Assembly (NCBI GenBank): GCA_038065775.1
Contig: JBBTQE010000019.1
Location: forward strand, 1 to 51,878
DNA: 51,878 nucleotides
Source of the DNA: Patescibacteria group bacterium
GTDB lineage: Bacteria > Patescibacteriota > Patescibacteriia > Magasanikbacterales > GWA2-37-8
Reading direction: 5' to 3'
Below the pieces are notes generated by a model. The model was given only the letters and a program-made list of their open reading frames with translations. It had not been told where the DNA came from and did no database searches. Each line of letters begins with the position of its first letter. Position 1 is the stretch's first letter. Shown here piece by piece: positions 9,374 through 43,739 of this stretch. The position numbers and the translations under genes are program-made.

Positions 9374-9815
9374 TAAAAATATTCAGATTGTATTAGATAT
9401 TCTTAAAGATGAAGTTGATGGCGATGTAGCGTCAGCTTTAAAGAAAATGACAAAAGATTATACAATGACATGGGTTGATACGGGGTTAAATGGCAAAAAA
9501 CTTTTTCCAACTACCACGCCGAATCTTAAGGCTGAATTGGAGGATGTTTATCCAATTAAGGGCCGACAGTAAGATATTAAGAATGTTGCTGAAGGAGATA
9601 ATGTTATTATGCTTGAGTTGATTGAAAGTTATCCTGATCAAAAAACAAAAAAGGTATACCGGACGCCATTAATATTAGTGCTAGAAATGAAAAATGGAAA
9701 AATTAGAACTGGCAGACATTATCTTGATCCGAAATTGTCGGACAAATATCTTACTGAAGAACAAATTGAAAAGGCATATAAAAACAACAAAGGTTCTCTG
9801 CTAATTATAAAATAA
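9357..9815 (+). pseudogene. NTF2-like (SnoaL/ketosteroid-isomerase-like) protein interrupted by one in-frame TAA
   Basis: ORFs 9357-9572 and 9609-9815 are in the same frame. The only stop between them is the TAA at 9570-9572. The joined product (...YPIKGRQ*DIKNVAEGDNVIMLELIE...GKIRTGRHYLDP) has the length and C-terminal pattern of a single NTF2-like domain. Confidence 0.5.
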
Positions 9816-9816
9816 T

Positions 9817-11307
9817 ATGATTCGCACTCGTTTCGCCCCAAGTCCAACAGGATACTTGCATGTTGGCGGCCTACGCACCGCGTTGTATCCATATTTATAC
9901 GCCAAAAAGCATGGCGGAAAATTTTTGTTGCGTATTGAAGACACGGATAGAGAGAGATATGTGCCTAACGCCGTGATAAATATATTAAAATCATTACATT
10001 GGGCCGGATTTGAGCCGGATGAAGGCGTAAAACTGGAATGTATAACCGACTCGGGCGATTGCGTTGTAACGCAAGAGGGGAAAGATGGGCCGTATATCCA
10101 GTCCGAGCGTTTGGAAATTTATAAAAAATACGCGCAGGAGCTTGTTGACGCCGGCCACGCCTATTATTGTTTTTGCGCGCCTGAACGACTTAGCGAATTG
10201 CGGGAAAAACAGCAGGCGAAGAAACTGCCGACCGGTTATGACGGTCATTGTGCGTCAATTGATCCGAAAGAGGCGGAAAAGCGAGCGAAAGCGGGCGAAA
10301 AATGCGTTATCCGTATGAAGATGCCAAAAACAGGCGAGACGATATTTAGAGACAATATTCGCGGGGAAGTTAGTTTTAAGAATGAGTTAATTGATGATCA
10401 GGTGATAATGAAATCAGACGGCTATCCTACTTATCATTTCGCGGTTGTTGTTGACGATCATCTGATGGGAATCACGCATATTATCAGAGGCGAGGAGTGG
10501 ATCAGCAGTGTCCCAAAACATATTCAATTATATAAATATTTTGGCTGGGATGTCCCGGAGATGGCGCATTTGCCGCTTTTGCTAAATCCGGATAAGTCCA
10601 AATTGAGTAAACGGCAAGGCGATGTCGCGGCCGAGGATTATCAAAAGAAAGGATACTTGCCTGAAGCCATGATTAATTTTGTCGCTTTACTCGGGTGGAA
10701 TCCTGGCACGGAAAAGGAAATGTTTACCTTGGCGGAGCTTATTGAGGAGTTTGATTTGTCGCGCGTTGGCAAGGCCGGCGCGGTGTTCAATATAGAAAAA
10801 TTGGACTGGTTTAATAAACAGTATATAAAGAAGTTGTCAGATGAAGAACTGGCCGAGCGAAGCCGGCCGTGGTTTGATGAGTCGGGCATAACAACAATGG
10901 AAAACTTTACCGAAGAGTTGTTAAAAAAGGCGATAGTCCTTGAGCGCGAGAGAGTAACTGTGTTATCCGAACTTCCGGATGCGGTTAAGTTTGTGTTTAG
11001 AACCCCCGATTATCCGGCTGATTTACTCGTTTGGAAAAAGAGTTCTAAAAATGAAGTTAAAAATGTCTTGCCGGGACTCGCGGAATTAATGAACACAATA
11101 AGTGTTCATGACTGGAACAGAGAAAAGTTGGAGGAAAAGATAGTGGAGTGGATAAAAGAAAAGGAATATTCCACCGGTTCTGTGCTGTGGCCTCTTCGTG
11201 TTGCGCTTTCGGGTCAGGAAAAGTCCCCCGGGCCGTTTGAAATTGCGGAGGTGTTAGGAAAAGATGAGACGTTGGCGCGTATTTCTTCTGCCGCAGATAG
11301 GGTATAA
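9817..11307 (+). CDS. gltX: glutamate--tRNA ligase
   Basis: 496 aa. RFAPSPTGYLHVGGLRTALY provides the HIGH-type motif and KLSKRQ provides KMSKS. Confidence 0.9.
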   Translation: MIRTRFAPSPTGYLHVGGLRTALYPYLYAKKHGGKFLLRIEDTDRERYVPNAVINILKSLHWAGFEPDEGVKLECITDSGDCVVTQEGKDGPYIQSERLEIYKKYAQELVDAGHAYYCFCAPERLSELREKQQAKKLPTGYDGHCASIDPKEAEKRAKAGEKCVIRMKMPKTGETIFRDNIRGEVSFKNELIDDQVIMKSDGYPTYHFAVVVDDHLMGITHIIRGEEWISSVPKHIQLYKYFGWDVPEMAHLPLLLNPDKSKLSKRQGDVAAEDYQKKGYLPEAMINFVALLGWNPGTEKEMFTLAELIEEFDLSRVGKAGAVFNIEKLDWFNKQYIKKLSDEELAERSRPWFDESGITTMENFTEELLKKAIVLERERVTVLSELPDAVKFVFRTPDYPADLLVWKKSSKNEVKNVLPGLAELMNTISVHDWNREKLEEKIVEWIKEKEYSTGSVLWPLRVALSGQEKSPGPFEIAEVLGKDETLARISSAADRV

Positions 11308-11338
11308 TTTTACGCCTGTTTGTGGTATACTATATATC

Positions 11339-12562
11339 ATGATCATAAAAAAATACTCGTCATTATTAATTTTAGCAATTTTTATTTTAGCCTTAACCGG
11401 GCCGAGTCTTGTTTTTGGAGAAGTGGGTGGAAATTCCGAGGAAATTCAACAATTAAATTCTGAAATAGAGCAGAGAAAAAATACAATCAAACAACTTGAA
11501 GAGGCAATTGAAAAATACAAAAAAAGTATTGAACAAAAGCAGACGGAAGCTTCGTCATTAAAAAATCAACTTGCGATTTTGGATGCGAATATTGTGAAAG
11601 TTACGGCCGATGTTGAATTAACAGGGGAAAAAATTAAACAAACATCATTGGAAATTGAAGCGCTTCAGTTGTCGATAAAAGACAAGGAGGCTGTAATCGC
11701 CAGGCAGAAAAAACTGGTCGCAAAAATAATTCAGAATATTCACGCTGACCAGGAAAGAAATTATTTGGAAATAATGTTGACGAACGGCAGTTTCGCGGAA
11801 TTTTATGATAAAATTCAGTACAAAATGAGTGTTTACACCGATCTTGGAAGATCTGTTAAAATATTGCGTTTAACCAAGGAAGATTTGGAAAGCAAAAAAT
11901 CGCAGATTGAGAGAAAAAAATTGTCATACGAAAAATTAAAAGTTGAACTTGAAGAAAATAAAGAGCGTCTTGAAGATCAGCAATTAGCTAAACAAGATTT
12001 GCTAGTGCAAACGCGATTTTCCGAAATGAAATACAAAACACTGCTCGCTAGTTTAAAGCAGGAGTACCAATCTGTTGAGGGAGAAATTAGAAAATTTGAA
12101 GAGCAGGTAAGAAAAAAACTGGAGGCTCAAGATAAGCTTATTGGCGCGGCCGGAGATTTTTTTTGGCCAGTGCCAAGCCGGGTTATTACCGCTAAATTTC
12201 ATGATCCGGATTATCCATTTCGCAGAGTTTTTGAGCATAGCGGCACTGATATTCGCGCTTCACAGGGCACGCCGGTTAAAGCCGCAAATTCAGGCTACGT
12301 TGGACGCGCGCGAAAGTGTTCTTTAGCCTCCTGTTATAGTTATATTTTGCTCATTCATACGGGGAATTTATCAAGTCTGTATGGCCACTTGAGTTTGGTA
12401 AATGTTGAGGCAGATCAGTTTGTTAACAAAGGCGATATCATAGGATATTCAGGCGGAAAGCCCGGAACTGTTGGCGCCGGTTCTTTTGTTACAGGCCCTC
12501 ACCTGCATTTTGAAATTCGTCAAAATGGAATTCCTGTTGATGCCGAACAATATTTGCCTTAA
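11339..12562 (+). CDS. M23-family peptidoglycan endopeptidase with N-terminal coiled coil (EnvC-like)
   Basis: The start is taken at MIIKKYSSLLILAIF, which is signal- or TM-like. The longer track ORF overlaps the gltX 3' end. A long coiled coil is followed by HSGTDI...GHLS...GPHLHFEIR (the HxxxD and HxH motifs of M23). Confidence 0.8.
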   Translation: MIIKKYSSLLILAIFILALTGPSLVFGEVGGNSEEIQQLNSEIEQRKNTIKQLEEAIEKYKKSIEQKQTEASSLKNQLAILDANIVKVTADVELTGEKIKQTSLEIEALQLSIKDKEAVIARQKKLVAKIIQNIHADQERNYLEIMLTNGSFAEFYDKIQYKMSVYTDLGRSVKILRLTKEDLESKKSQIERKKLSYEKLKVELEENKERLEDQQLAKQDLLVQTRFSEMKYKTLLASLKQEYQSVEGEIRKFEEQVRKKLEAQDKLIGAAGDFFWPVPSRVITAKFHDPDYPFRRVFEHSGTDIRASQGTPVKAANSGYVGRARKCSLASCYSYILLIHTGNLSSLYGHLSLVNVEADQFVNKGDIIGYSGGKPGTVGAGSFVTGPHLHFEIRQNGIPVDAEQYLP

Positions 12563-15706: not shown

Positions 15707-16672
15707 CTACTCTTTGTCAAAAAGAGGATGAAAATCATGGTGCGTTTTCTCCGCGAACTTATCAGAGGCGTGCACGTAGCGGGTCGTCGTGTCTAGCGAC
15801 TCGTGGCCCAACAGAATCTGGATTGCCGCAGGGTTAGCGCCATTTTCGGCTAAAAAAGTAGCAAACCCATGGCGCAGAGTATGGGCGCTGATGGGAATAT
15901 TTATATCGAGCAACTCCCGATATTTTTTTATTTTAAATTGCAAGTAATTGGTTGATATTTTTTTATTTTTTTCCTGATTATTTCTGCCCCGGTAGGGGAC
16001 AAATAACATATCAGACGTGCTATTTCGTTTGGCGAGGTAATTTTTTAAGTGCGCAAGCGCTCGAGGCGTCAAATATACAAAACGTTGTTTTTTTCCTTTT
16101 CCAAGCACATAAATTCGTCCAGTTTGGTCAATTTGGTTCACTTTTAGCGATAAAAGTTCGGAAATACGCATGCCAGTGGCGAATAATGTTTCAAGCATCG
16201 CTCTGTTGCGTAGAGCGACACGTTCCTCGCCTTCATATTTTATCGGAGCTTCAATAATTTTTATAATTTCTTCAAATTCAGGCACTTGCGCGTGTTTTTT
16301 AATGTTTTTAATTAATTTTATCGCGGCAGGGGATATGGGGGTGGTATGATCCATATCTTCCATAAACTTTAAATAAGACCGCAAGGCCGAAAGCATGCGG
16401 TTTATAGAGTAACTGCTTAGCTTTTTATTAGGTCTATTGGTTGATATGGCCGTTCTACGGTCAGAAGAGCCCAAATAAGCCTTGTAGCGCAATAAATCCG
16501 TCTTATCTATCTTGTTAAATACTTTTTTTATATCTTCGTTTAAAAAATATTCAAAAATTTTTAAATCGCGCTCGTAGTTGTAAGCAGTTTCTTCAGAGAA
16601 GTTATTTGCTTTAAGATTTAAAATAAAATCATCTAGATATGGAAGTTGCGGTAAATTGTTTAAAGTAGTCAT
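15707..16672 (-). CDS. tyrosine site-specific recombinase (XerC/XerD family)
   Basis: The C-terminal catalytic signature is HTLRHGFATFL...LLGHESLDTTTRYVH, plus ATGMRISEL. The start is taken at MTTLNNLPQLPY (16672), because the longer ORF overlaps the upstream ftsQ-like gene. Confidence 0.85.
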   Translation of the reverse strand: MTTLNNLPQLPYLDDFILNLKANNFSEETAYNYERDLKIFEYFLNEDIKKVFNKIDKTDLLRYKAYLGSSDRRTAISTNRPNKKLSSYSINRMLSALRSYLKFMEDMDHTTPISPAAIKLIKNIKKHAQVPEFEEIIKIIEAPIKYEGEERVALRNRAMLETLFATGMRISELLSLKVNQIDQTGRIYVLGKGKKQRFVYLTPRALAHLKNYLAKRNSTSDMLFVPYRGRNNQEKNKKISTNYLQFKIKKYRELLDINIPISAHTLRHGFATFLAENGANPAAIQILLGHESLDTTTRYVHASDKFAEKTHHDFHPLFDKE

Positions 16673-16760
16673 ATTGAACTGAGTGTAAGAGATATTATAC
16701 TCAATTATATAATACTCTTGAAATGCGGTCAAAGTACTTTTCCACAGCCCTCCCCTTCTA

Positions 16761-17672
16761 TTACTTCCAATAAATTCTGCTGTCAAGACGTAAATCAATA
16801 TACTCGGTTGGTTTCACCGTTTTTAAAATATTTTTAAGATTATTAATTTGAAAATCTACATCAATAATATCCGGATTGAAATAAATATTCCATGTTTTTG
16901 CCGTATCTATCATTACGCCCGCGGAGGGATTGTCTATTTTAAAATATTCAGCCGTGCCAATCCCCTTTTTTAAAAGCGCGGTGTGCCATGCAATTATTGA
17001 TTCTACTATATTTTGTGGAAGTAAACCAAGCTGATTGTTTTCAATTTTTATAATTTGAGTGTCATAAACTATGGGGTAATTTCCATAGAGAGCCTGAATT
17101 TTTTTAAAATTTGGCGTGTAAGTTGAGCTTGCGCCAGAAACATGCGATGTGCTGCTGGTCGCATTTTTAAGAATTGAAAAATTAGAGGGGGTGCCTGACA
17201 CGGAACTGGCTTCACCCAGATATTTAATTAGACCGCCCCCAGTATCTAGCAAATAATATTTTGAATTGTTTTCATAGATCACGGAAGAAACTTTTTCTGT
17301 AATATTTACAGTAATTTTATTTGGGAATAGTTTGAATACCGCTACGTCTTCAAGCGTAAATTTATTTTTGAGTGATGCCTGAATTTTTTCTGGATTAACT
17401 AAAAAATAATTGTCAAACGGAATATAATAGTATTTTGAAAAAAGAAATTGTTCATAAATAAAATTTTTAACCTCCACCTCGCTTAAATTATTTATCCCAA
17501 CAATCTTTACACTTGTAATTCTAAAATACGGAAGGTACATCGCCAGAAGAAGCCACGCGAGAACGGTTGCAAAAAATAAAATTAAAATCAATCTCGCCTT
17601 TGATGTTTTTATTTTTTTAGGCGCGTGAGGTTTATATTTTTGAAAGCTTAATTCAGATCGAAGATGTCTCAT
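16761..17672 (-). CDS. FtsQ/DivIB-like cell division protein (TM helix plus POTRA)
   Basis: 303 aa. A single N-terminal TM helix (LILILFFATVLAWLLLAMYL) is followed by a POTRA-like FRITSVKIVGINNLSEVEVKNFI segment. Confidence 0.6.
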   Translation of the reverse strand: MRHLRSELSFQKYKPHAPKKIKTSKARLILILFFATVLAWLLLAMYLPYFRITSVKIVGINNLSEVEVKNFIYEQFLFSKYYYIPFDNYFLVNPEKIQASLKNKFTLEDVAVFKLFPNKITVNITEKVSSVIYENNSKYYLLDTGGGLIKYLGEASSVSGTPSNFSILKNATSSTSHVSGASSTYTPNFKKIQALYGNYPIVYDTQIIKIENNQLGLLPQNIVESIIAWHTALLKKGIGTAEYFKIDNPSAGVMIDTAKTWNIYFNPDIIDVDFQINNLKNILKTVKPTEYIDLRLDSRIYWK

Positions 17673-28694: not shown

Positions 28695-31691
28695 TCATAC
28701 CTTGTACTGGCAAATATTTTTAAAATCGCAATATTTACACGTGTGCTGGCCCGGGGTTGCGGAAAAATTTCCGGAATTGATTTGCTCGATTGTTTTAATC
28801 AGTTTCTCTTGAAGTTTAGAAATTTCTTTTTCATTTCCTAAAAACGAAACGCGCTTGTTGTCGTTTAAATAGTAGAATGTCAATTTTCCCGGCGCGCCAA
28901 TTTCTCTGTATTCTGGAAGTTGCCGCAGGGCGATTTGGTAAATTATCAGCTGGTCCTTATCTTCGCCCTCAACTTTTTCTTTTGCCTTTCCTGTTTTATA
29001 GTCAATAATTTCAAACGAACCGTCCGGCAAACGGTCAATTCTATCTATCTGACCGCGCACCAAATAATTCCCAATTTTAATTTTAAACGACGACTCCAGC
29101 CCAACCGGAATTGTCCAATTATTTTCTTCGGATTTATAAAACTCGCGTAAAATATCCTTGCCAAGCTGGTAATATTCTTCGCGTTGGAGCTTTGTATTAT
29201 ACCAATCTTCAATCCATGATTCTTCATAAAAAACAAGTAATTTATCCAACGAAGGCGCTTTGGTGGTTTTTATCGGCGCGTTCTTTCGCGGCGCGTCAAA
29301 AAGCGAGTCCTGTCTCACGTCGTTTAACTCGCATAGCCGTTCATAAAATTTATGCATCGCGCCATGCACACTTTTTCCAAAACTAAAACTCGCGCTTCCT
29401 TTGGTTGGTATTTTCAAAATGTGCGCCAGCTTGTATTGGTATGGGCATGTGCTGTAAGATTTGATTTGTGAAAATGAAAAAACGTCTGGGTGCTGATAGA
29501 TGAAGTCGGCCTTGTTGTCATCCCGAGCGAGGATCGCGCCGACGAGGGATCCCTGTCCATTTATCGATTGAGATAGGGTTTCCTCCGGAGCTTGCACTGA
29601 ACGAAGTGAATGTGTCGTCGGAATGACAGAAAACCCCAGCTCGGCTAAAAACCTGCTGATCTTTTTCGCCCTTGCCCCTCCGTAATCATCGGCGCTTAAC
29701 AAAAACAATTTTTCTTTCGCGCGCGTTATGGCCACATAGAACAAACGCCGTTCTTCCTGGCAGTGGCTATCCCCTTCCGAGAGCTGTTCTTTAATCAATT
29801 CGGCCGGTATTTCAATTCCCTCGCCGCGTCGTCTGGCAGGGAACCTATCCTCAACCAAATTAACGACAAAAACATACTTAAACTCCAGCCCTTTTGCCTT
29901 GTGGACAGTAATAATGTTAACGGAATCAGGCGTATCTGATGGCTGATAAAGCGCGCCCATATCTCCTGATTCAAGCACGTAATGAAAGTGTTCTAGAAAG
30001 CCGACAATGTTTGGGTTTGATGTTTCTGACTCATACTCATTTACATACTCAAAAAATTCTTTTAACTGATAAATTTGGCGAATCATTTCGCGATTCCCTT
30101 TTTGCTCTTCTTTTGTTAATAATTCCAACAACCCTGTTTGTTCTAAAAAGTTATACAGAATTACAGTCGGTTTTTCAGTTTTTGATTTTTGTAAGCCGAT
30201 TTGAATAATGTTTAATATTGCGGAGGTGTTTTTTTGGCCATTTTCGCTGACTCCAAATTCGCCGGTCCGCTTTAACGCTTCATAAAACGACACACTTTTC
30301 CGTTTGGCGTTATATGACAATTTCTGCATGTCTTGCTCGTTAATTTTCCAAACCGGCATGCAGAGCAATCGGTATATTGATTGTGAATCGTAAAAATTTT
30401 CCAAGACCCTAAAATAGTTTATACAGTCCAAAACAATTGGCTGACGGTAAAGTCCGGAAGCCGCCAAAAATTCGTATGGCACGCCGGCTTTTTCCAGCGC
30501 CGCCATAAATGGTTCGCTGTGGCTATTGGCCCTAACCAAAATTGCAAAATCATCCCAAACAACATTGGAATCGTTTTCTTTAGCCCGGATTATTTCTCTC
30601 ACAACCGTTTTTACTTCTTCGTCAATAGTTGAACACATAATGTGAACAACACTTTTTTCGTCAGAAGATGGAACCTTCGATGTAAACTCGGGATGATTAG
30701 CGCGGCTAATCAATTTTTTATCTAGTTTTAATTTTACCTCCAAGCGATCGGGATTATTATTTTGGATTAACTTGTAGGCAGTGTCTAAAATCTCTTGATT
30801 GGATCTATAATTTTCATTTAACACGATTTCTTTTGCCTTGGGAAAGTCATCCTTAAAACGCAAAATGTTTGAAACCGACGCGCCACGAAACGCGTATATG
30901 CTCTGGTCGTCATCTCCCACCACCGTTAGATTTGGGTTTTCGCCGGCCAGCAATTGCACCAATTGATACTGCGCCCAATTTACATCCTGGAACTCATCAA
31001 TAAGAATGTATTTGAATCTTTTTCTCAACTTGTCGGTAATATTTTCGCGGGTTTGCAAAAGTTTTAATGTATAAAAAATCAGGTCGCCAAAATCCAGCGC
31101 CTCATTTTCCAAAAGAAGTTGGTTGTATGTGTGGTACGCATTGGCTACTTCTGATAAGCGAGTTTTTTCGTCGGTATTATCTTTATTCAGCTTGTTATCT
31201 TCCGCTAAATTCAAGTAGTCGTCCGGCGTTATCAATTCATCTTTGCATTTGTTAAAATGAGTAATCAATTCATGGATGTGCCCGGAGGGATTCCCAAGCG
31301 GACTATAATAATCCAAATTAAATTTGTCCAAATTTTTCCTCATTAACATCCACGCCTCGGATTCGGTTGCAAGTTTAAACTTATTGCTTAAACCAATGTC
31401 CAGCGCGTATTTTTCCAAAATTTTCTGGCAGAATGAATGAAATGTTGAAATTTGTAAATCAACATACCCGATCTCAATCAGATTATCCACTCGGGTAAGC
31501 ATTTCATCGGCCGCTTTTTCGGTAAAGGTTAAAGCCAAAACCTCCTCGGGAGTAGCGAGTTTTTGTTCAATTAAATAGGCGATTTTTTGCGTTATAACCG
31601 TTGTTTTACCGGTCCCGGCGCCGGCAACGATGATAAGCGGGCCATTGTTGTATTCCACGGCCTCTTTCTGGGCTTTGTTAAGAGTTTGCAT
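28695..31691 (-). CDS. UvrD/PcrA-type SF1 helicase fused to a C-terminal PD-(D/E)xK Cas4/AddB-like Fe-S nuclease
   Basis: 998 aa. Helicase motifs include VAGAGTGKTTV (Walker A), ILIDEFQDVN, VGDDDQSIYAFRGA and TVHKAKGLEF. The C-terminal nuclease has CPYQYKL...GQIDRID...IIDYKTGK...QLIIYQ...CKYCDFKNIC. The linker contains repeat copy 29516-29628. Confidence 0.85.
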   Translation of the reverse strand: MQTLNKAQKEAVEYNNGPLIIVAGAGTGKTTVITQKIAYLIEQKLATPEEVLALTFTEKAADEMLTRVDNLIEIGYVDLQISTFHSFCQKILEKYALDIGLSNKFKLATESEAWMLMRKNLDKFNLDYYSPLGNPSGHIHELITHFNKCKDELITPDDYLNLAEDNKLNKDNTDEKTRLSEVANAYHTYNQLLLENEALDFGDLIFYTLKLLQTRENITDKLRKRFKYILIDEFQDVNWAQYQLVQLLAGENPNLTVVGDDDQSIYAFRGASVSNILRFKDDFPKAKEIVLNENYRSNQEILDTAYKLIQNNNPDRLEVKLKLDKKLISRANHPEFTSKVPSSDEKSVVHIMCSTIDEEVKTVVREIIRAKENDSNVVWDDFAILVRANSHSEPFMAALEKAGVPYEFLAASGLYRQPIVLDCINYFRVLENFYDSQSIYRLLCMPVWKINEQDMQKLSYNAKRKSVSFYEALKRTGEFGVSENGQKNTSAILNIIQIGLQKSKTEKPTVILYNFLEQTGLLELLTKEEQKGNREMIRQIYQLKEFFEYVNEYESETSNPNIVGFLEHFHYVLESGDMGALYQPSDTPDSVNIITVHKAKGLEFKYVFVVNLVEDRFPARRRGEGIEIPAELIKEQLSEGDSHCQEERRLFYVAITRAKEKLFLLSADDYGGARAKKISRFLAELGFSVIPTTHSLRSVQAPEETLSQSINGQGSLVGAILARDDNKADFIYQHPDVFSFSQIKSYSTCPYQYKLAHILKIPTKGSASFSFGKSVHGAMHKFYERLCELNDVRQDSLFDAPRKNAPIKTTKAPSLDKLLVFYEESWIEDWYNTKLQREEYYQLGKDILREFYKSEENNWTIPVGLESSFKIKIGNYLVRGQIDRIDRLPDGSFEIIDYKTGKAKEKVEGEDKDQLIIYQIALRQLPEYREIGAPGKLTFYYLNDNKRVSFLGNEKEISKLQEKLIKTIEQINSGNFSATPGQHTCKYCDFKNICQYKV
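29516..29628. repeat. palindromic element, long variant, inside the helicase-nuclease CDS
   Basis: tgtcatcccgagcgagg...tcgtcggaatgaca. On the minus strand it is translated as VIPTTHSLRSVQAPEETLSQSINGQGSLVGAILARDD. Confidence 0.85.
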
Positions 31692-35054: not shown

Positions 35055-35082
35055 AAAAAACCCGGCGCGAGGCCGGATTTTT
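35055..35082 (-). terminator. rho-independent terminator of the atp operon (bidirectional shape)
   Basis: AAAAAAC-CCGGC-gcgag-GCCGG-ATTTTT. On the minus strand the GC stem is followed by GTTTTTT. It lies about 10 nt after the atpC stop codon (hairpin stem 35062-35076). Confidence 0.7.
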
Positions 35083-35084
35083 GA

Positions 35085-35495
35085 TTATTTTCTATACTTT
35101 TTCGCCACTCGCATCTTGTTCACTTCTCTATCGATCAACGCCTGCAGTTTGGCAAAGTCAACATCTTGAACATTTTTAATATTTTTCATTTGTTCTTCGG
35201 CTCGTTTGCGCGCCTCTTCCGTTTTTTCCAAATCAATTTCTTCGGCTCTTTCGGCACTATCGGCCAAAATTATGACCTCGTTGTTTCCTCTCACCTCAAT
35301 AAATCCGCTTGAAACCGCAATGTGATGCTCGCCGTCTTTATCTTTTATTTTTAATTCGCCCGAAGCCAAAACGGAAACCAGTGGAATGTGATTTTTAAGA
35401 ACAGTAATTTCGCCACTCGTGGTTGGAATGGATACCTGAAAAATTTCATTTTCGTAAACAATTTTTTCCGGAGTGACGATTCTGAATTTAAGCAT
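35085..35495 (-). CDS. atpC: F1 ATP synthase epsilon subunit
   Basis: The start is taken at MLKFRIVTPEK (35495), just after the atpD stop. A beta-sandwich domain is followed by a C-terminal helical hairpin. Confidence 0.8.
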   Translation of the reverse strand: MLKFRIVTPEKIVYENEIFQVSIPTTSGEITVLKNHIPLVSVLASGELKIKDKDGEHHIAVSSGFIEVRGNNEVIILADSAERAEEIDLEKTEEARKRAEEQMKNIKNVQDVDFAKLQALIDREVNKMRVAKKYRK

Positions 35496-35496
35496 A

Positions 35497-36873
<1,377 letters not shown>

Positions 36874-36889
36874 TTAATTATTTTTTAGC

Positions 36890-36966
36890 TGTCATTCCGA
36901 ACGCAGTGAGGAATCTCTGTCCAATTGGCCAACCGACAGAGATCCTTCGCTTCGCTCAGGATGACA
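36890..36966. repeat. palindromic element (atpD|atpG intergenic)
   Basis: tgtcattccgaacgcagtgaggaatctctgtcc-aattggccaacc-gacagagatccttcgcttcgctcaggatgaca. Confidence 0.9.
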
Positions 36967-36980
36967 AATTGTAATATGAA

Positions 36981-37934
36981 TTATTCCAATGCCGCGGCGC
37001 CGCCTGCTATTTCCGCAATTTCTTGCGTAATGCCTGCTTGCCTGGCTTTATTAAAATTCAAATTTAATTCTTTGATCATATCTTCAGCCGCGTCGCTCGC
37101 GCTCCTCATCGCCACCATTCTGGCGCTGTGTTCGCTGGCGGACGACTCCAACATCGCCTGATAAATTTGCATCTCAACCAGACGCGGTAAAATTATTTTT
37201 AAAACATCCAGTTTGTTTGGTTCAAAAAGATAATTGCCTAATTCAATCTCCGTTTTTTGTTCGTGAGATTTGCTTACCTCTTCAATTTCATTTAACATCT
37301 TTTCAAGATCAACTTCTGAAATAGGCAAAACCTGTCTTAATTTCGCGATTTGCGCGATTGTGGATTTAAAATCCGTGTATGCGACGATAACTTTGTCGTA
37401 GACCTTGTTTTCATAATCATTAACGACCATTCTTCCGATCGGCAAGGCATCATTCATGTTAGGGGTATCAGACAAATTTGTAAATGATGCGATTAAATTA
37501 TACCCCATTTTTTTCGCAAAATCCGCGCCTTTTTTTCCGATGCCAATTACATCAACTTCAATTTTATCGCTTGGCGCGACTACTCTTCCACTAACTCTTT
37601 GTCTGCTGATATTTTTTGGATCTTTTAATTGCTCGGATGTTTTTCTGATGATGTTTGAATTAAAACTTCCGCACAATCCCCTGTTTGATGTTATCATGAT
37701 TACCAAAACTTTTTTTACCTGTCTGGCTTCAAGCAACGGGATTTGCATTTTTTCTCCTTGCGAAAGATGAACAAGCAAATCCCAAGCAAGCGTTGCGTAA
37801 TTTCGAGTATCCAAAGCAGCGCTGACGGCTTTTCTCATTTTTGCCGCCGCGACCATTTCCATCGCTTTCGTAATCTTTCGCGTGCTTCCGACGGATTTTA
37901 TTCTTCGTTTGATTGCTTTGGTGTTTACGGCCAT
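36981..37934 (-). CDS. atpG: F1 ATP synthase gamma subunit
   Basis: 317 aa. The N-terminus IKRRIKSVGSTRKITKAMEMVAAAKMRKA and the C-terminus ITQEIAEIAGGAAAL are gamma-subunit signatures. Confidence 0.9.
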   Translation of the reverse strand: MAVNTKAIKRRIKSVGSTRKITKAMEMVAAAKMRKAVSAALDTRNYATLAWDLLVHLSQGEKMQIPLLEARQVKKVLVIMITSNRGLCGSFNSNIIRKTSEQLKDPKNISRQRVSGRVVAPSDKIEVDVIGIGKKGADFAKKMGYNLIASFTNLSDTPNMNDALPIGRMVVNDYENKVYDKVIVAYTDFKSTIAQIAKLRQVLPISEVDLEKMLNEIEEVSKSHEQKTEIELGNYLFEPNKLDVLKIILPRLVEMQIYQAMLESSASEHSARMVAMRSASDAAEDMIKELNLNFNKARQAGITQEIAEIAGGAAALE

Positions 37935-37941
37935 ATAATTC

Positions 37942-38024
37942 TGTCATCCTGAACGCAGTGAAGGATCTCTGTCCATATTGTTTTGACGAACAAGACAGAG
38001 ATTCTTCGTATGCTCAGAATGACA
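37942..38024. repeat. palindromic element (atpG|atpA intergenic)
   Basis: tgtcatcctgaacgcagtgaaggatctctgtcc-atattgttttgacgaaca-agacagagattcttcgtatgctcagaatgaca. Confidence 0.9.
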
Positions 38025-38036
38025 ACTGATAATAAA

Positions 38037-39524
38037 CTACTTCTTAAACTCCTCGCAAGCCGACTTTAATTCCGCTTCAATTTTTTCGTCCCACTCGCCT
38101 GCGGAAATTTTATTTAACAGCTGTCTTTTGCCCTTGCGCATAAAATCCGCGAACTTTTTTTCAGCGACCGGAATATCTTTTACCGCAACGCTGTCAAAAA
38201 ACCCATTGTTCGCCGCATAAATAACAGCAACTTGATCTTCAACCGCAACCGGTTGGTACTGTGGCTGTTTCAAAAGCTCTGTAATGCGTTGACCGCGGTC
38301 AATCTGTTTCTTTGTTTCCGGATCCAAATCGCTGGCAAACTGCGCAAACGCTTCCAGTTCTCTAAATTGCGCCATTGCCAATTTCAATTTGCCTGCAACT
38401 TTTTTCATTGGTTTAATTTGAGCGGCTCCGCCAACGCGTGACACAGAAATACCGACATTCAAAGCAGGACGGATGCCCCGGTAGAACAAGTCGGTTTCCA
38501 AAAAAATCTGGCCATCGGTAATGGAAATCACGTTTGTCGGGATGTACGCTGTCACATCGCTTGCCTGTGTTTCGATTATAGGCAAAGCGGTGATAGATCC
38601 GCCCCCGGATTCTTCGTTTCTGCGGCAAGCGCGTTCCAATAATCTTGAATGTAAATAGAAAACATCGCCTGGGTATGCCTCACGGCCAGGTGGTCTGCGG
38701 AGCAAAAGCGAAATCTCGCGGTATGCCCATGCCTGTTTGGACAAATCGTCATAAACGCATAAAACATCTTTGCCCTGATCCATAAAATACTCGGCCATAG
38801 CAACACCGGCGTAAGGGGCGATGTATGCCAACGAGGCCGGTTGTGACGCGCCTGCGACGACAACAATCGTGTAATCCATAGCGCCCGCTTCTTTCAGTTT
38901 GGCGACGATACGCGCAACCTTAGATTCTTTTTGACCAATGGCAACATAAACACAAATCATGTCCTTGCCTTTTTGGTTGATAATAGTATCAATCGCAACC
39001 GCGGTTTTTCCGGTTTGGCGATCGCCGATAATAAGCTCTCGCTGTCCGCGTCCGATTGGAATCATAGCGTCAATCGCTTTAATACCTGTTTGCACCGGTT
39101 GTGTTACCGGCTGACGTTTCATTACGCCCGGAGCAATTTTTTCAATCGGATAAAACCTTGAGGATTTAATATCTTTTCCACCATCAATTGCTTGACCCAG
39201 AGGATTAACAACACGCCCAATCAATTCTTCTCCGACCGGCACAGACAAAATTCTGCCCGTTCTTTTTACAGTATCCCCTTCTTTAATATGTTTATATTCT
39301 CCAAGCAACACGCAACCTACGGTTTCTTCCTCAAGATTTAGCGCCAAACCAAAAGTTCCGCCTTCAAACTCAATCATTTCGCTGGCTTGAATTTTTGTTA
39401 AACCGGAAAGACGCGCGATGCCGTCGCCTACTTCTATAACTTTACCGGTTTCTTCTTTTTCAACTTCTTTTTGAAAAAGAGAAATATTTTTTTTCAATTC
39501 TTCAACAATGGAATTGGTTGACAT
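38037..39524 (-). CDS. atpA: F1 ATP synthase alpha subunit
   Basis: 495 aa with GDRQTGKTA (Walker A) and ITDGQIFLE. Confidence 0.95.
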
Positions 39525-39530
39525 ATCTAT

Positions 39531-39914
39531 TTAAATTAATTGATTTTTTAATCTTGATAATTGTTTTTTTAAACTCGCGTCGTAAACGATATTATCAACT
39601 TTTATTCTGATTCCGCCAATCAAATTCGGATTCGTTGTTTCTTTTATCTCCGCGTTGTCTCCGAATGTTTTTTTAATTTTGCTTAATGTTATTTTGCTTA
39701 ACTCGCCGGCTGACTCAACTTCAACCTCTTTAATGCCATCCTGATTTTTTGAGTACCTTTCAAATTCATCTATTATATATTCAATTTTCTTTAACTTTCT
39801 ATCTTTTAAAAGCAATGACAAAAATTGTTTCGCGACTTCATCCAAATGATTCTTTGGCGCGTCTTTTGACACCTCATACAACGCTTTTGCGTATTGTTTG
39901 TTGCTTTTTTTCAT
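39531..39914 (-). CDS. atpH: F1 ATP synthase delta (OSCP) subunit, short form
   Basis: 127 aa. The call rests on its position between atpF and atpA, the YAKALYEV N-terminus and the LIGGIRIKVDNIVYDASL C-terminus. It is shorter than typical delta subunits. Confidence 0.7.
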   Translation of the reverse strand: MKKSNKQYAKALYEVSKDAPKNHLDEVAKQFLSLLLKDRKLKKIEYIIDEFERYSKNQDGIKEVEVESAGELSKITLSKIKKTFGDNAEIKETTNPNLIGGIRIKVDNIVYDASLKKQLSRLKNQLI

Positions 39915-39919
39915 ACCAA

Positions 39920-40504
39920 TTAGATCTTCATGCTTTCTACCGCTTCTTCAATAATTTTTTTATCTTTTGTTGAATCCAATTTGCTGGAAAGAATTTTTTC
40001 CGTGGCCATGACTACTAAATTCGCGGCCTGCTCCCTTACTTCGTTAATTGATTCATCGCGTTCGGCTTTGATATTTTTTCTTGCCTGCTCCACAAGCAAT
40101 TCTATGTCTTCCTTGGCTTTCACCTTCATATCATCGCCCAATTTTACGGCTTCCTGTTGGGCTTTCTCAGTTATTTTATTCGCTTCAACTTTTGCGTCAT
40201 CAACCCTTTCTTGAAATTTTCTTTCACTCATCATTAAATTTGTTTCAACTTTTCTGGAATTTTCAATACTGGCATCAATCATTTTTTGCCTTTCGGCCAT
40301 CTTTTTTGTAAGCGGTTTAAGAATTAAAAACCATAAAATCAAAGCAACCGCGATAAAATTGATTAACTGAAAAATAAATAGTGTGCCGTTAATGCCGAGG
40401 GAGGCCAGCACTCCGCCATCAGCTGCGGCTTCGGTGGCATGCCCTGCGCCCTCTACGGCTTTTTTAATAGGTTCTGACGCGTATACAGTTTCAATAAAAT
40501 TCAT
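39920..40504 (-). CDS. atpF: Fo ATP synthase b subunit
   Basis: 194 aa. A single TM helix (LFIFQLINFIAVALILWFLIL) is followed by a long charged helix. Confidence 0.8.
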   Translation of the reverse strand: MNFIETVYASEPIKKAVEGAGHATEAAADGGVLASLGINGTLFIFQLINFIAVALILWFLILKPLTKKMAERQKMIDASIENSRKVETNLMMSERKFQERVDDAKVEANKITEKAQQEAVKLGDDMKVKAKEDIELLVEQARKNIKAERDESINEVREQAANLVVMATEKILSSKLDSTKDKKIIEEAVESMKI

Positions 40505-40515
40505 ATATTTTATTT

Positions 40516-40598
40516 TGTCATTCTGAGTGAAACGAAGAATCTCTCTCTACTGGTTCTGATAATACAGACAGATATCCTTCATTACATTCAGGATGACA
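40516..40598. repeat. palindromic element (atpF|atpE intergenic)
   Basis: tgtcattctgagtgaaacgaagaatctctctc-tactggttctgataataca-gacagatatccttcattacattcaggatgaca. Confidence 0.85.
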
Positions 40599-40647
40599 TT
40601 TTAAATAAGTCAATTCCATTGGGCTCTTATGAACCCAATGAGTTGAA

Positions 40648-40869
40648 TTACTTCAATGTGAAAACAACGACCAACGCATAAATAGCGATGGCTTCGGCAA
40701 ACGCGGCGCCGAGCAACATCGGAACGAATAATTTGTCCGATGCCTCCGGGTTGCGACCGATGGCTTGCATGGCTTTGGCAACAAGATTGCCGATAGCCAA
40801 GGCAGGCCCAAAGCCGCCGATGGCCATTGTCAAACCCTTTACCAACGCGACCACTGATTCGTGCTCCAT
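40648..40869 (-). CDS. atpE: Fo ATP synthase c subunit
   Basis: 73 aa forming a two-helix hairpin, with the polar loop GRNPE and the conserved carboxylate in AFAEAIAIYALVV. Confidence 0.9.
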   Translation of the reverse strand: MEHESVVALVKGLTMAIGGFGPALAIGNLVAKAMQAIGRNPEASDKLFVPMLLGAAFAEAIAIYALVVVFTLK

Positions 40870-40956
40870 ACGATTTTTACCTTTCAGACACCATCCGTTC
40901 GAGGGAATAATATATTTAACCTCGCAAATGGCATCTTTAAAAATTAATCGACCTAA

Positions 40957-41778
40957 TTAATGTGTTAAAGTCGGCTCTGCGCGCGTTTTATGGCTGTCTT
41001 TTTCTTCGTGGCCATGCGGCGCCGTGGACATTATGGTTAAATAAACCAATGTTAACATTGTAAACACGCTGGCCTGAATCAATCCAACCAAAACCTCCAG
41101 CATCATAAACGGCGCAGGCACCAAAAGCGCGGCGATACTGCTGATTACGGAAATTAAAACTTCGCCGGCAAAAATATTTCCAAACAACCTAAGCGAAAGA
41201 GACAAGATTTTTGCAATTTCGCTGATGATTTCTATGAGTCCTACGGCCAATTCAACTACGGCGGTAAAAATCGCAACCGGACCTTTTGTTAAACTTTTAA
41301 AAAACGTCCCGATTTGAATAAATTTGTTTAGATGAGTAAACACGCCTACGGTTATAAAACCAAAAACATGGGACGAGAGCACGGCAACGACCGCCATTGC
41401 CGCCGTAAGGTTTAAATCGGTGTTGGCGGGGCGAAGCAACATGCTCTGGCCAAGCTTAATACTTCCGGTTCCCGGCAATAGGCCGAGCCAGTTGGAGAGT
41501 AAAATAAAAAAGAAGACGGATCCGACAATCGGCAAAAAGCGCATTGTCTTTTTTCTGTCTCCGGTCACTCTGTCAAAATATCCAAGAAGTTTTTCTAAAA
41601 AAAATTCCATGAAGTTTTGCATTTTTCCGGGTTTGACGCTCAATCTCTTGCGGATAGTCAACCCTAGCACTAGGAAAATAATAATCGCCAGCCACGTATT
41701 AATAATAGTATTGGTAATTGGCAGTTTTCCAATATGAAATAGGGTTTCTGGCGCTAATGTTGGTATGTGAAATTCCAT
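40957..41778 (-). CDS. atpB: Fo ATP synthase a subunit
   Basis: It contains LSLRLFGNIFAGE with the essential Arg. The start is taken at MEFHIPTLAPE (41778). The longer track start at 41793 (MTQKT) lies inside repeat copy 41788-41852. Confidence 0.85.
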   Translation of the reverse strand: MEFHIPTLAPETLFHIGKLPITNTIINTWLAIIIFLVLGLTIRKRLSVKPGKMQNFMEFFLEKLLGYFDRVTGDRKKTMRFLPIVGSVFFFILLSNWLGLLPGTGSIKLGQSMLLRPANTDLNLTAAMAVVAVLSSHVFGFITVGVFTHLNKFIQIGTFFKSLTKGPVAIFTAVVELAVGLIEIISEIAKILSLSLRLFGNIFAGEVLISVISSIAALLVPAPFMMLEVLVGLIQASVFTMLTLVYLTIMSTAPHGHEEKDSHKTRAEPTLTH

Positions 41779-41787
41779 AGTTTTCTG

Positions 41788-41852
41788 TGTCATCCCGAAC
41801 TTGTTTCGGGATCTACTGTAATTTCAGATGCTGAAACAAGTTCAGCATGACA
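41788..41852. repeat. palindromic element, short variant (atpB|atpI-like intergenic)
   Basis: tgtcatcccgaacttgtttcgggatct-actgtaatttc-agatgctgaaacaagttcagcatgaca. Confidence 0.85.
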
Positions 41853-41860
41853 ATTAAATT

Positions 41861-42118
41861 TTACTTACCCAACTTCTTATACTCTTCTCCGTAATTTTTT
41901 GCTTTTTTGTGGATTATTTTTACAGAAATAAGCGCGGCAAGAACAAATCCTAAAATCGTGAATAGCGGACCGCGGCGATATTTTTCATCCAAATATTGGC
42001 CGGCCAGCACAAACAAAATTACCGGAATTGCGATTGATGCGCCAAAATCCCCCATTATCTTGAATGCAAACAAGTAATATTCTCTACTCTTTGATTTTTG
42101 CGGGATTTTTTCATCCAT
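41861..42118 (-). CDS. AtpZ/AtpI-like small membrane protein (first gene of the atp operon)
   Basis: The start is taken at MDEKIPQK (42118), because the longer ORF would cover the promoter. The product has two TM helices (FGASIAIPVILFVLAGQYLD..., LFTILGFVLAALISV), as in the ATPase_gene1 family. Confidence 0.6.
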   Translation of the reverse strand: MDEKIPQKSKSREYYLFAFKIMGDFGASIAIPVILFVLAGQYLDEKYRRGPLFTILGFVLAALISVKIIHKKAKNYGEEYKKLGK

Positions 42119-42143
42119 ATTACAATCATTAAACGACGCCAAT

Positions 42144-42172
42144 ATTTTACAAAAAAAACCCGGTAAAGTCAA
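42144..42172 (-). promoter_or_regulatory. sigma-70-type promoter of the atp operon
   Basis: On the minus strand: TTGACT (42172-42167), a 17-nt spacer, then TAAAAT (42149-42144), about 25 nt upstream of the atpI-like ATG. Confidence 0.6.
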
Positions 42173-42217
42173 GGCTTTTTTAAATTCACTATAATTGAAT
42201 ACCGAAATATCTGAATA

Positions 42218-43138
42218 TTAAGATATTTTGAACAATTTCTTCGCATTTTCTGTTGTTTTGTTTAAGACCGCTTCTTCGGGAACGCCTTTTATCTCCGCAA
42301 TCTTTTTCGCCACTTCTTCCACCATCCATGGCTCGCAACGCTGGCCTCGATAGGCCTGCGGAGCCAAATATGGCGCGTCTGTTTCCACCAACATCCGCTC
42401 AAGCGGACACTTTTCAACAACTTCAAGCAAGTCCAATTGTGTTTGCGGATCGGTTTTTTTGGGCGGGAATGTGATAACGCCGGTAAAACCAAGATATAAT
42501 CCCAAATCCAAATACTGCTCGGCAATTTCCCAATTACTTGTATAGCAGTGAATAACGCCGCGGATGGTAGATTTTGTCATCCCGAACGCATGTGAAGGAT
42601 TTCTGTCGGTTGTATTTTTGGACAGAGATTCCTCGTCGCTTTGCTCGCTCGGAATGACAAGATACCGCAACAACCCAATCATTTCTTCATGCGCTTCTCT
42701 AACGTGTATGACTAATGGCAAGCCAAGTTCTTTGGCTAAATTATACTGGGCTAGGAATATCTCCTTTTGTTTTTTCAAAACTTCCTCCCCGCCAACTCCT
42801 TTCGGCAGATGAAAAAAATCCAACCCACACTCCCCTATCGCGATTACTTTTTTATTCTTCGCCAGCTTTTTGTAATATTCATAATCAAATTCTTCTTCGC
42901 GCGACTCAAACTTTGCTTCCGCTTCGTCAACGCGCGATTTAAAAAGATGGATCGGATGCAATCCGACCGTGGCATAAATATTATCGTATTTTCCCGCGTA
43001 TTCTACCGCCCGGGCGCTCGTGTCTCTTTGCGATCCGACCGCGTTCAAGATTACATTTTTTTCAACGCAACGTTTAATTACTTCGTCCGCGTCGTCTTTA
43101 TACGCGCTAAATTGTATATGGCAGTGGGTGTCTAACAT
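42218..43138 (-). CDS. TatD-family metal-dependent hydrolase carrying an in-frame palindromic-element insertion
   Basis: 306 aa with MLDTHCHIQF, IGECGLDF, LVIHVREA, VIHCYTS and ETDAPYL. About 29 extra residues (VIPSEQSDEESLSKNTTDRNPSHAFGMTK) lie between the HVREA and HCYT strands and are encoded by repeat copy 42575-42659. Confidence 0.85.
   Translation of the reverse strand: MLDTHCHIQFSAYKDDADEVIKRCVEKNVILNAVGSQRDTSARAVEYAGKYDNIYATVGLHPIHLFKSRVDEAEAKFESREEEFDYEYYKKLAKNKKVIAIGECGLDFFHLPKGVGGEEVLKKQKEIFLAQYNLAKELGLPLVIHVREAHEEMIGLLRYLVIPSEQSDEESLSKNTTDRNPSHAFGMTKSTIRGVIHCYTSNWEIAEQYLDLGLYLGFTGVITFPPKKTDPQTQLDLLEVVEKCPLERMLVETDAPYLAPQAYRGQRCEPWMVEEVAKKIAEIKGVPEEAVLNKTTENAKKLFKIS
42575..42659. 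repeat. palindromic element inside the tatD CDS
   Basis: tgtcatcccgaacgcatgtgaaggatttctgtcgg-ttgtattttt-ggacagagattcctcgtcgctttgctcgctcggaatgaca. Confidence 0.9.
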
Positions 43139-43141
43139 ATC

Positions 43142-43666
43142 TTATATTATCCCGTCCACCGTGCTTCGCAACATTTTCAGCGCTTCGGGAAACAACGGCA
43201 CTAAAATGGAAGCTAGCTTAACCAGCGGCGGAGCGAACTGCGACTCGCCCAAAGCATTCATAAAAAATGAACCGAGCGGAAATCTGGAAATAAAATACAA
43301 GGAAATTCCGACTACCAAAGCGCCTTCAAAAATACCAAAAATAAGACCGGCTATTTTATCAAGACCTCGTATAAATGGAAGCTTGGTAAAAATGCTTAAA
43401 ACTTTTTGCATAATCCAAAACACAAATCCGACAAGCCGCGCGATTATTAAAAAAACAATTACAAAAATTACTACTTTAACGTGATTTTGATTCCAACTCG
43501 TAAAATTTATAACCCAATTGGCGATCGGCTCGTAATATCTGCTTGCCAAATAAACACCAAACACCGTGCCGAGCAAAGAGCCAACTGTATGCAATAGGCC
43601 AAACCATAATCCAAATAACCCAAAGCCGCTTATGATTATAATTAAAACTATATCAAATATAGACAT
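43142..43666 (-). CDS. CvpA-family membrane protein
   Basis: The start is taken at MSIFDIVLIIIISGFGLFGLWFGLL. It has four TM helices and a GLIFGIFEGALVVG motif. Confidence 0.7.
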   Translation of the reverse strand: MSIFDIVLIIIISGFGLFGLWFGLLHTVGSLLGTVFGVYLASRYYEPIANWVINFTSWNQNHVKVVIFVIVFLIIARLVGFVFWIMQKVLSIFTKLPFIRGLDKIAGLIFGIFEGALVVGISLYFISRFPLGSFFMNALGESQFAPPLVKLASILVPLFPEALKMLRSTVDGII

Positions 43667-43690
43667 AATAAAATTATTTAAATACAACTA

Positions 43691-43738
43691 GATTGCTTCG
43701 CGGAATTTATCCCGCGCAGAGGCGGGGCTCGCAATGAC
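43691..43738. repeat. half or degenerate copy of the palindromic element (single arm)
   Basis: Read on the minus strand it is tgtcATTGCgagccccgcctctgcgcgggataaattccgcgaaGCAATct. This keeps the TGTC terminus and the ATNNC...GNNAT arm hairpin, but there is no second arm. Confidence 0.5.
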
Positions 43739-43739
43739 A

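Follow-up and report, generated by a model that had tools for sequence, protein, structure and literature searches.

TGTC-tagged palindromic repeats, very probably REP-type elements, in and around the ATP synthase operon of a Patescibacteria bacterium

Bacterial REPs, or repetitive extragenic palindromes, have been split into two superfamilies, one GTAG-tagged and the other CGTC-tagged (Di Nocera, De Gregorio & Rocco, BMC Genomics 2013; PMC3733652). As its authors describe them, the CGTC REPs comprise four families, CGTC-1 to CGTC-4, in which TGTC is a frequent tag variant, A and T are complementary at stem positions 1-2, contiguous stems of 8-9 bp close loops of 4-5 nt (non-complementary stem residues and variant loops being allowed), and a short unpaired tail has the consensus CCA. 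In the same account they occur mostly as head-to-head dimers with spacers of 20-100 bp, heterodimers predominating in some families; intragenic copies are frequent in UvrD/RecB-type genes, and the elements "apparently lack a dedicated transposase". That paper also equates CGTC-1 with RPE-6, one of the Rickettsia palindromic elements (RPEs), and with dRS3 of Neisseria, equates CGTC-4 with RPE-4, and reports CGTC REPs from five phyla. Here we describe a family of palindromic elements with termini of the form TGTCAT...ATGACA in a stretch of 51,878 nt (~52 kb; hereafter the window, to which all window counts refer) from the genome of a Patescibacteria group bacterium, where four of its dimers occupy gene junctions of the operon for the F-type ATP synthase (atp). 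These elements are very probably REP-type repeats of the TGTC/CGTC-tagged superfamily. The superfamily itself is already known; what is new is the host clade, the Candidate Phyla Radiation (CPR)/Patescibacteria, and a family of arms with a GA bulge.

The basic unit is a single arm of ~25-50 nt, made up of an unpaired TGTC tag, a stem, a variable inner stem-loop and a short tail (C), with the layout TGTC-AT-xyz-GA-[inner stem-loop]-GA-z'y'x'-AT-C. The first stem pairs are A-T and T-A; three covarying pairs follow, and then a tandem GA/GA bulge that is conserved. TGTC opens each of the 15 arms in the window, and every arm has the AT...AT closing pairs. The main arm type consists of 5 bp, the GA/GA bulge and either 2-3 bp with a 3-nt loop or a larger inner hairpin. 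After the stem comes always C and then TCT, CCC or TAC, a partial match to CCA. Four copies carry a CTCTGTCC...GGACAGAG core after the arm. Where two arms are inverted with their tags outside, the result is a head-to-head heterodimer with TGTC at both outer ends, which may be regarded as analogous to the REP doublets known as REPINs or to the bacterial interspersed mosaic elements (BIMEs). The xyz triplets observed were TCC, CCT, TCT, CCC, GCT and TGC; the partner in the same arm varied in step, and the triplets differed between the two arms in all seven dimers of the window (heterotypic dimers).

An earlier reading of the window, made from the sequence alone and referred to here as the sequence-only reading, had proposed that each arm is a stem-loop and that a dimer can also fold as one long hairpin, and had suggested a check for compensatory changes between arms. 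Both proposals held. In a wider sample of 322 dimers from all fetched loci, the exact intra-arm partner of AT+xyz was present in 90% of arms, as compared with 23% when triplets were permuted. A second test used 70 distinct 26-nt arms gathered by a pattern that made no demand for complementarity: standard pairs filled 96.3% of cells (85.4% in shuffles), double-sided changes numbered 80 (25 in shuffles, with none of 500 shuffles reaching the observed count), four pairs swapped U-A/C-G or G-C/A-U, and slid controls dropped to 18-51% paired. Compensatory change is therefore strong within arms, and the constrained unit is the arm hairpin. The minimum-energy fold of the dimers is the long cross-arm hairpin (RNA folds of -29.5 to -45.1 kcal/mol; z -4.4 to -7.0 in six of seven). 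In the wider sample 144 of 261 dimers (55%) were heterotypic, and cross-arm pairing is therefore sacrificed.

The sequence-only reading listed six copies, all within about 7 kb around the atp operon and all of one architecture. Each of the six was recovered at the same coordinates, with Pfam supporting its gene assignments. Two more full dimers were located outside the range of that list (8957-9065 and 29516-29628), so that the atp operon is not the only setting of the family. The inventory of the window now stands at seven dimers and one solo arm (Table 1). The motif TGTCATYCYGA (at most one mismatch) occurred 16 times, compared with 2.2 +/- 1.5 times in shuffles (maximum 6), and a covariance model of the arm returned 12 arms at E <= 0.012, all within the seven dimers, the next match having an E of 0.86. 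The copy at 41788-41852 belongs to another subtype with a contiguous 8-bp stem (ATCCCGAA/TTCGGGAT), a 5-nt loop, a second arm beginning ATGCTGAA... and no CTCTGTCC core; its arms scored E 0.004 and 0.012 with the covariance model. The dimer at 29516-29628 represents the same subfamily as 8957-9065 in opposite orientation, one arm pair being 95% identical. It had also been claimed that the elements account for most of the intergenic DNA of the atp operon. They do so in sum (308 of 541 nt of spacer), with the qualification that the 87-nt atpB/atpE junction has no element.

Table 1. Positions in the window of the palindromic elements and of the operon holding four of them. Folds are predicted RNA folds (kcal/mol; z-score).
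Feature	Position	Strand	Setting	Distance to flanking genes	Fold
F-type ATP synthase (atp) operon	35085-42172	minus	gene order atpI-like, B, E, F, H, A, G, D, C (Pfam)		
Putative atp transcription unit	35056-42172	minus	from consensus scans only; four atp-junction dimers internal		
Head-to-head heterodimer, triplets TCC/CCT	36890-36966		atpG/atpD spacer; both arms E <= 2.4e-8	begins 14 nt past atpG stop, ends 25 nt ahead of atpD start	-37.7; z -5.3
Head-to-head heterodimer, triplets CCT/TCT	37942-38024		atpA/atpG spacer	begins 12 nt past atpA stop, ends 7 nt ahead of atpG start	-37.9; z -7.0
Head-to-head heterodimer, triplets TCT/CCT, degenerate core	40516-40598		atpE/atpF spacer, downstream of a separate native hairpin (~40617-40640)	ends 11 nt ahead of atpF start	-29.5; z -4.4
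Head-to-head heterodimer, second subtype	41788-41852		atpI-like/atpB spacer	8 nt past atpI stop	-30.1; z -6.6
Head-to-head heterodimer	42575-42659		inside tatD (open reading frame 42218-43138, minus), in frame as LVIPSEQSDEESLSKNTTDRNPSHAFGMT		
Solo arm, TTGC subtype, long inner segment (TGTCATTGCGA...GAAGCAATC)	43691-43739	minus	metG/cvpA spacer	directly after metG stop codon	-13.9; z -0.9 (not significant)
Head-to-head heterodimer, one arm long	8957-9065		in WecG/TagA-like gene (8555-9373, plus), in frame as CHSEHIHCVQCKLREESLSNSFGHGSLVGASLARDDT		
Head-to-head heterodimer	29516-29628		in UvrD/PD-(D/E)XK helicase-nuclease gene (28695-31691, minus), in frame as SVIPTTHSLRSVQAPEETLSQSINGQGSLVGAILARDDN		weaker; z -2.0

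Loci of relatives syntenic with the window (L006, L007, L008, L213-L216) were retrieved via homologues of AtpG, the nearest named of which belong to Patescibacteria/Candidatus Magasanikbacteria. Five independent metagenome assemblies from the Hainich aquifer (well H43), including the metagenome-assembled genome GCA_964356015.1, encode an identical AtpG, and their DNA was 99.8-99.99% identical to that of the window, elements included; the window comes from a Magasanikbacteria-like Patescibacteria genome of Hainich groundwater. Further away the elements come and go. In L008 (AtpG 87% identical) the atpA/atpG and atpG/atpD junctions measure 7 and 10 nt and both sites are empty. L007 (AtpG 76% identical) has no element in 21 kb, with junctions of 3-30 nt (3 nt at atpA/atpG), and its TatD and UvrD-like proteins are 27 and 10 aa shorter than those of the window; the site of 36890-36966 is thus empty in both relatives, and at atpE/atpF L007 and L006 have only an unrelated hairpin. 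Other relatives carry copies elsewhere: L006 at atpB/atpE (near-identical in subtype to 41788-41852) and atpH/atpA, L215 at atpG/atpD along with an extra arm, and L216 and L008 at atpD/atpC. In the window, L006 and L213 the metG/cvpA spacer holds one solo arm, each time with the same orientation, and in L007 it holds none; these arms differ inside, that of L006 being of the TTGC type with another inner hairpin and that of L213 of the ATTCCCGC GAAG GCGGGAAT type. The units are thus repetitive and dispersed, and related genomes have gained or lost them.

The sequence-only reading had raised the possibility of selfish DNA, similar either to MITEs, the miniature transposable elements with inverted repeats, or to REPs, and had suggested that orthologous atp operons be compared for presence/absence polymorphism and target-site duplications. 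The polymorphism was found, and the target-site duplications were not. Classical MITEs would be deletion derivatives of an insertion sequence (IS), mobilised in trans by a DDE transposase acting on the TGTCAT...ATGACA termini. The polymorphism, the size of 65-113 nt and the palindromic shape are all in keeping with such an origin, and TG...CA termini occur in several DDE families. However, the flanks of 307 unique dimers were close to permuted flanks and revealed no target motif: direct repeats showed a slight excess at 2 nt (32 vs 16) and at 4 nt numbered 0 against 1.5 expected, the only bias being for a pyrimidine to precede and a purine to follow the element (Y/R). Comparisons with empty sites in relatives likewise yielded no target-site duplication, and identity with DDE-type MITEs in the strict sense is therefore not supported. 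Arms also occur singly, both at junctions and in genes, and neither covariation within arms nor the 55% share of heterotypic dimers would be predicted if only terminal repeats were constrained. We thus consider a MITE origin very improbable. The REP-like half of the proposal is supported by further copies in the window, in relatives and in most phyla, and by empty orthologous atp junctions.

A mobilising gene was sought in several ways. Pfam scans of all substantial open reading frames (ORFs) of the window recovered no transposase, in agreement with the sequence-only reading, and no gene for a REP-associated tyrosine transposase (RAYT; IS200/IS605-like Y1 transposase) within the 52 kb. Neither the window nor 1.6 Mb of loci bearing elements yielded a parent IS with the same termini, in a search that was not exhaustive. 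All-against-all clustering of the ORFs from 204 element-bearing loci revealed no transposase family recurring beside copies, only housekeeping families and two related groups of phage contigs. The sole recombinase of the window is an Xer-like tyrosine recombinase (15707-16798, minus) located 6.6 kb from the nearest copy; it has Phage_integrase and SAM-like N domains, overlaps ftsQ by 38 nt and adjoins no element. We know of no mobilising enzyme for the CGTC-type REP superfamily. The elements may spread as single-strand DNA hairpins by means of an enzyme acting in trans.

About 95% of the window is coding, leaving 2715 nt of intergenic DNA in total, and the elements persist only where they are harmless: in gene junctions and in in-frame loops or linkers of proteins. 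Three of the seven dimers lie within ORFs (the WecG/TagA-like, UvrD-nuclease and TatD genes), all of which remain open across the dimer, each in a different frame of the element. TatD gains 29 residues (LVIPSEQ...AFGMT), mapping between residues 158/159 of PDB 1j6o, that are absent from the TatD of L007, L006, L213 and L216. A single-sequence AlphaFold model of this TatD was poor (mean pLDDT 53.7); the inserted residues 161-192 were the least confident and were placed between a helix and the next strand. The insertion in the WecG/TagA-like transferase amounts to 37 residues and falls, on the TagA structure 7mpk, between residues 142/146. In the UvrD/PD-(D/E)XK gene the copy fills the variable linker that separates the helicase from the nuclease domain, a net 8 aa being gained relative to L007. 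In L006 a solo arm adds LSFPRKRES to MetG, and an HhH-GPD glycosylase has two solo arms and a third copy adding 17 residues; some intragenic copies of L006 substitute host residues instead of purely adding to them.

The tatD site yielded further observations. An apparent polymorphism in one of the five Hainich assemblies was rejected, as it proved to be a scaffold gap of 100 Ns spanning the copy (L004:2061-2160, corresponding to window 42380-42827), which suggests that the repeat breaks short-read assembly. The tatD of L214 (3765-4685) has a different strong palindromic dimer (L214:4230-4330; -43.9 kcal/mol) at the same loop as the window insertion. Its arms are CTCCTCCTTAGTTAAGGAGGAG-like and lack the TGTC tag, and its center, AAAAACAACC, resembles the AAAAATACAACC of the window; this could reflect a hotspot, or else a single old insertion in which an arm was swapped.

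Ten element peptides were compared with Pfam and with NCBIfam, which includes RPE domain models; at E <= 10 there was no match bar one below threshold. This was the minus-strand translation of 36890-36966, FVILSEAKDLCRLANWTEIPHCVRNDS, which matched NF033850, "mobility-associated LCxxNW protein", at E 0.009 and with 16 bits where the cut-off is 40. Translated repeats of this sort may themselves have gone into the NF033850 model.

With the CGTC REPs, as the text of PMC3733652 presents them, the window elements share the tag, the AT start of the stem, head-to-head dimers, heterodimers, in-frame intragenic copies and the lack of a dedicated transposase. The written definition of CGTC-2 in that paper fits the 41788 copy (8 bp, 5-nt loop), and that of CGTC-1 fits the L006/L213 arms (ATTCCCGC-GAAR-GCGGGAAT). 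Encoded peptides listed there include SFPRKRES and VIPAKAGI for CGTC-1 and RHSELVSGS for CGTC-2; the insertion in L006 MetG contains the identical SFPRKRES, and the frame peptide CHPELVSGS of the 41788 copy resembles the CGTC-2 peptide. Differences from that description are the tail, which is C(TC) rather than CCA, and the host, a member of the CPR/Patescibacteria rather than of the five phyla named in the paper.

Several points weigh against assignment to this superfamily, or against neutral spread within it. The CGTC stem of 8-9 bp with a 4-5-nt loop, as described in PMC3733652, is matched by both arms of 41788-41852, but the main GA/GA arm type departs from it. Peptides typical of the main type (VILSE, ERSE, AQDD and others) are not in the intragenic list of that paper, and the match as a whole is one to the paper's text and supplementary peptide lists rather than to consensus sequences. 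Given the GA/GA stem and the peptides outside that list, we place the main arm type, as judged by the text descriptions, as a further family in the TGTC/CGTC superfamily and not as one of the four named. Apart from the one arm pair with 95% identity the window copies are diverged and so give no demonstration of recent activity, and no mobilising enzyme was identified in the 52 kb surveyed. Lastly, purely neutral scatter would not predict the concentration of dimers in atp junctions: dimers occupy 4 of 8 atp junctions and 0 of 40 other junctions of the window (p 3.6e-4, a post hoc comparison), and in L006, L215 and L216 all four intergenic dimers lie in atp junctions (p ~0.02, estimated by hand from gene tables). 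The atp operon holds ~10% of the element-free spacer DNA of the window.

Other described systems are less close. Like the RPEs of Rickettsia, the elements are palindromes inserted in frame in unrelated housekeeping genes of a small genome, with the peptide in a tolerated loop, and they have intergenic copies and no known transposase (PMC10969869). They differ in host phylum and from RPE-1, which is ~150 bp long and encodes a conserved peptide domain; the ten peptides compared with NCBIfam and Pfam gave no sequence membership in an RPE peptide family. With the GTAG REPs, REPINs and BIMEs of Pseudomonas and E. coli the elements share an inverted pair of hairpins that can fold separately or as one, the lack of target-site duplication, and sites within operons downstream of ORFs (PMC3116915). 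Many copies are intragenic, unlike GTAG/RAYT elements, and the TGTC tag in all arms of the window rules out identity with a GTAG/RAYT REPIN. In BIMEs Y and Z REPs alternate, as do the two arm types here. Finally, the dRS3 elements and Neisseria intergenic mosaic elements (NIMEs) have in common with the L006 and L213 arms an ATTCCC...GGGAAT hairpin core. dRS3 differs in forming large clusters that flank RS units and is a site of phage integration; nothing alike is present in the window.

The distribution of the elements was scanned with one pattern of the dimer architecture, a canonical form of which is TGTCATCCTGAGCGAAGCGAAGGATCTGC...GCAGATCCTTCGCTTCGCTCAGGATGACA, against IMG/VR and a collection of species-representative genomes; a rough information-content estimate by hand puts chance matches at a few at most in either collection. 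The pattern matched 84 stretches in IMG/VR and at least 120 in the species-representative genomes. Among the genome matches listed were Acidobacteriota, Nitrospirales, Chloroflexota, Cyanobacteria, Bacteroidota, Firmicutes, Planctomycetota, Gemmatimonadota, Armatimonadota, Omnitrophota, many Proteobacteria including Rickettsiales, and CPR (Moranbacteria, Curtissbacteria). IMG/VR viral contigs with elements include L041 (8545-8970), L071, L040, L070 and L080; among these carriers are a tandem array of five heterodimers with A-rich linkers at a contig end, and two related groups of phage contigs with several copies each. A blastn search of PLSDB plasmids with a canonical dimer gave no match at E <= 0.01. 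In full-text literature, strings of element DNA retrieved primers only, or nothing, and a literature search combining CPR with REP, MITE or palindromic element returned no paper linking REPs to CPR.

The position of four dimers inside one operon raises the question of a role in its expression. The sequence-only reading had suggested hairpins co-opted to tune segmental stability or processing of the atp mRNA. On a reading of this type, the elements might be co-opted cis-acting RNA hairpins, kept to set the segmental stability or the translation of the atp mRNA, for example by shielding upstream segments from 3'-5' decay or by stalling ribosomes 8-14 nt past a stop codon. REPs of E. coli are reportedly able to stabilise upstream mRNA segments and, when less than ~15 nt from a stop codon, to reduce translation of the upstream gene. 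A promoter-like site (42172-42144) and an intrinsic-terminator-like hairpin with a T-run (35082-35056, right after atpC), both from consensus scans, delimit a putative transcription unit in which all four dimers are internal; none of them is terminator-like, all are very stable as RNA, and three of the four begin 8-14 nt past the upstream stop codon. The enrichment in atp junctions given above points the same way, as do, weakly, the single non-Watson-Crick pairs of outer stems, of which eight were G.U and one A.C on the sense strand (small numbers, with crude ORF-based strand calls). Set against this, the positions are not conserved: the closest relatives are empty, even at 87% AtpG identity, and others use different junctions. 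The two arm types are oriented 3:3 relative to the mRNA. The same family occurs in frame inside ORFs, across phyla and in IMG/VR viral contigs. At the junction that follows atpE an unrelated hairpin is already in place; L007 and L006 likewise have an unrelated hairpin there, which looks like the ancestral stabiliser. A dedicated role in atp mRNA is thus not supported by conservation; we regard it as unlikely, and the regulatory reading is unproven and not favoured. In our view, whatever effect the elements have on atp mRNA follows from their insertion and is not the reason for their existence. Within the transcript they would form hairpins of -30 to -38 kcal/mol. As a by-product these probably hinder 3'-5' exonucleases or slow the ribosomes that are completing the upstream gene, and they would not amount to a conserved control device.

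The strong predicted folds might also suggest a described structured RNA (riboswitch, ribozyme or small RNA) or an intrinsic terminator. We give this next to no credence, as no Rfam 15 family attained its gathering score, whether in the window or in 18 loci with elements (and nothing relevant appeared at E < 5 in the region), a T-tract follows no copy and the operon has its own terminator at 35082-35056, and inside ORFs the copies are read in three different frames. A hammerhead-like reading of CUGA...GAA was rejected in turn: its core positions are not conserved, and CUGA is present in only some arms.

The enrichment in atp junctions is nonetheless real enough to merit attention genome-wide. 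It is conceivable, if doubtful, that in Magasanikbacteria-like CPR the atp junctions, which differ by lineage, attract or retain TGTC-tagged REP dimers, either by targeting (for example of the exposed single-stranded DNA of a heavily transcribed operon) or by repeated recruitment of hairpins that uncouple and stabilise parts of the atp mRNA. Foreign DNA is generally accepted at the atp junctions of this clade. L006 has a Fic-domain gene between atpG and atpD (10964-12040), and L214 has ORFs of 116 aa at atpF/atpH (7164-7514) and 157 aa at atpA/atpG (9483-9956). At atpA/atpG (9956-10000) and atpI/atpB (6146-6188) L006 also has hairpins of a second type, YCCCCTTA..TAAGGGGR (ctcccccTTTATAAgggggag, cccctccccttagcaaggggagggg), which may represent another REP-like family in the clade.

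Other features of the window were recorded in passing. The genes for TatD, CvpA and MetG (Pfam) lie upstream of the atp operon. The ATGACA terminus at 41788-41793 provides an in-frame alternative ATG for atpB, 5 codons longer than the called start (278 aa vs 273 aa); termini of the TGTC family can thus make spurious or alternative start codons. The element-free atpB/atpE spacer (40870-40956, 87 nt), upstream of atpE, has a CGAGG...CCTCG hairpin and an AAAGGT motif; both are also present in the same spacer of L006 and may be a conserved atpE leader. The WecG/GltX "spacer" of 443 nt (9380-9816) reads as a gene of ~140 aa with one in-frame TAA (9571-9573), which could indicate a pseudogene, a recoding event or a sequencing error.

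These findings extend both the tagged CGTC/TGTC REPs and the RPE-like in-frame "protein-coding palindromes" to the Candidate Phyla Radiation. They also place the architecture in far more phyla than the five reported in PMC3733652, as well as in viral contigs of IMG/VR. For annotation, CPR genes are inflated and interrupted by the repeats, which also give rise to spurious ORFs and starts (the ATGACA end) and break assemblies. The ~1-Mb genomes of this clade are almost devoid of mobile-element genes, and among close relatives the elements vary from absent to plentiful; comparison of gene presence and absence among them could therefore reveal the enzyme that moves CGTC-type REPs and RPEs. Such minimal genomes are also suited to testing the effects of REP hairpins on the expression of a stoichiometry-sensitive operon.

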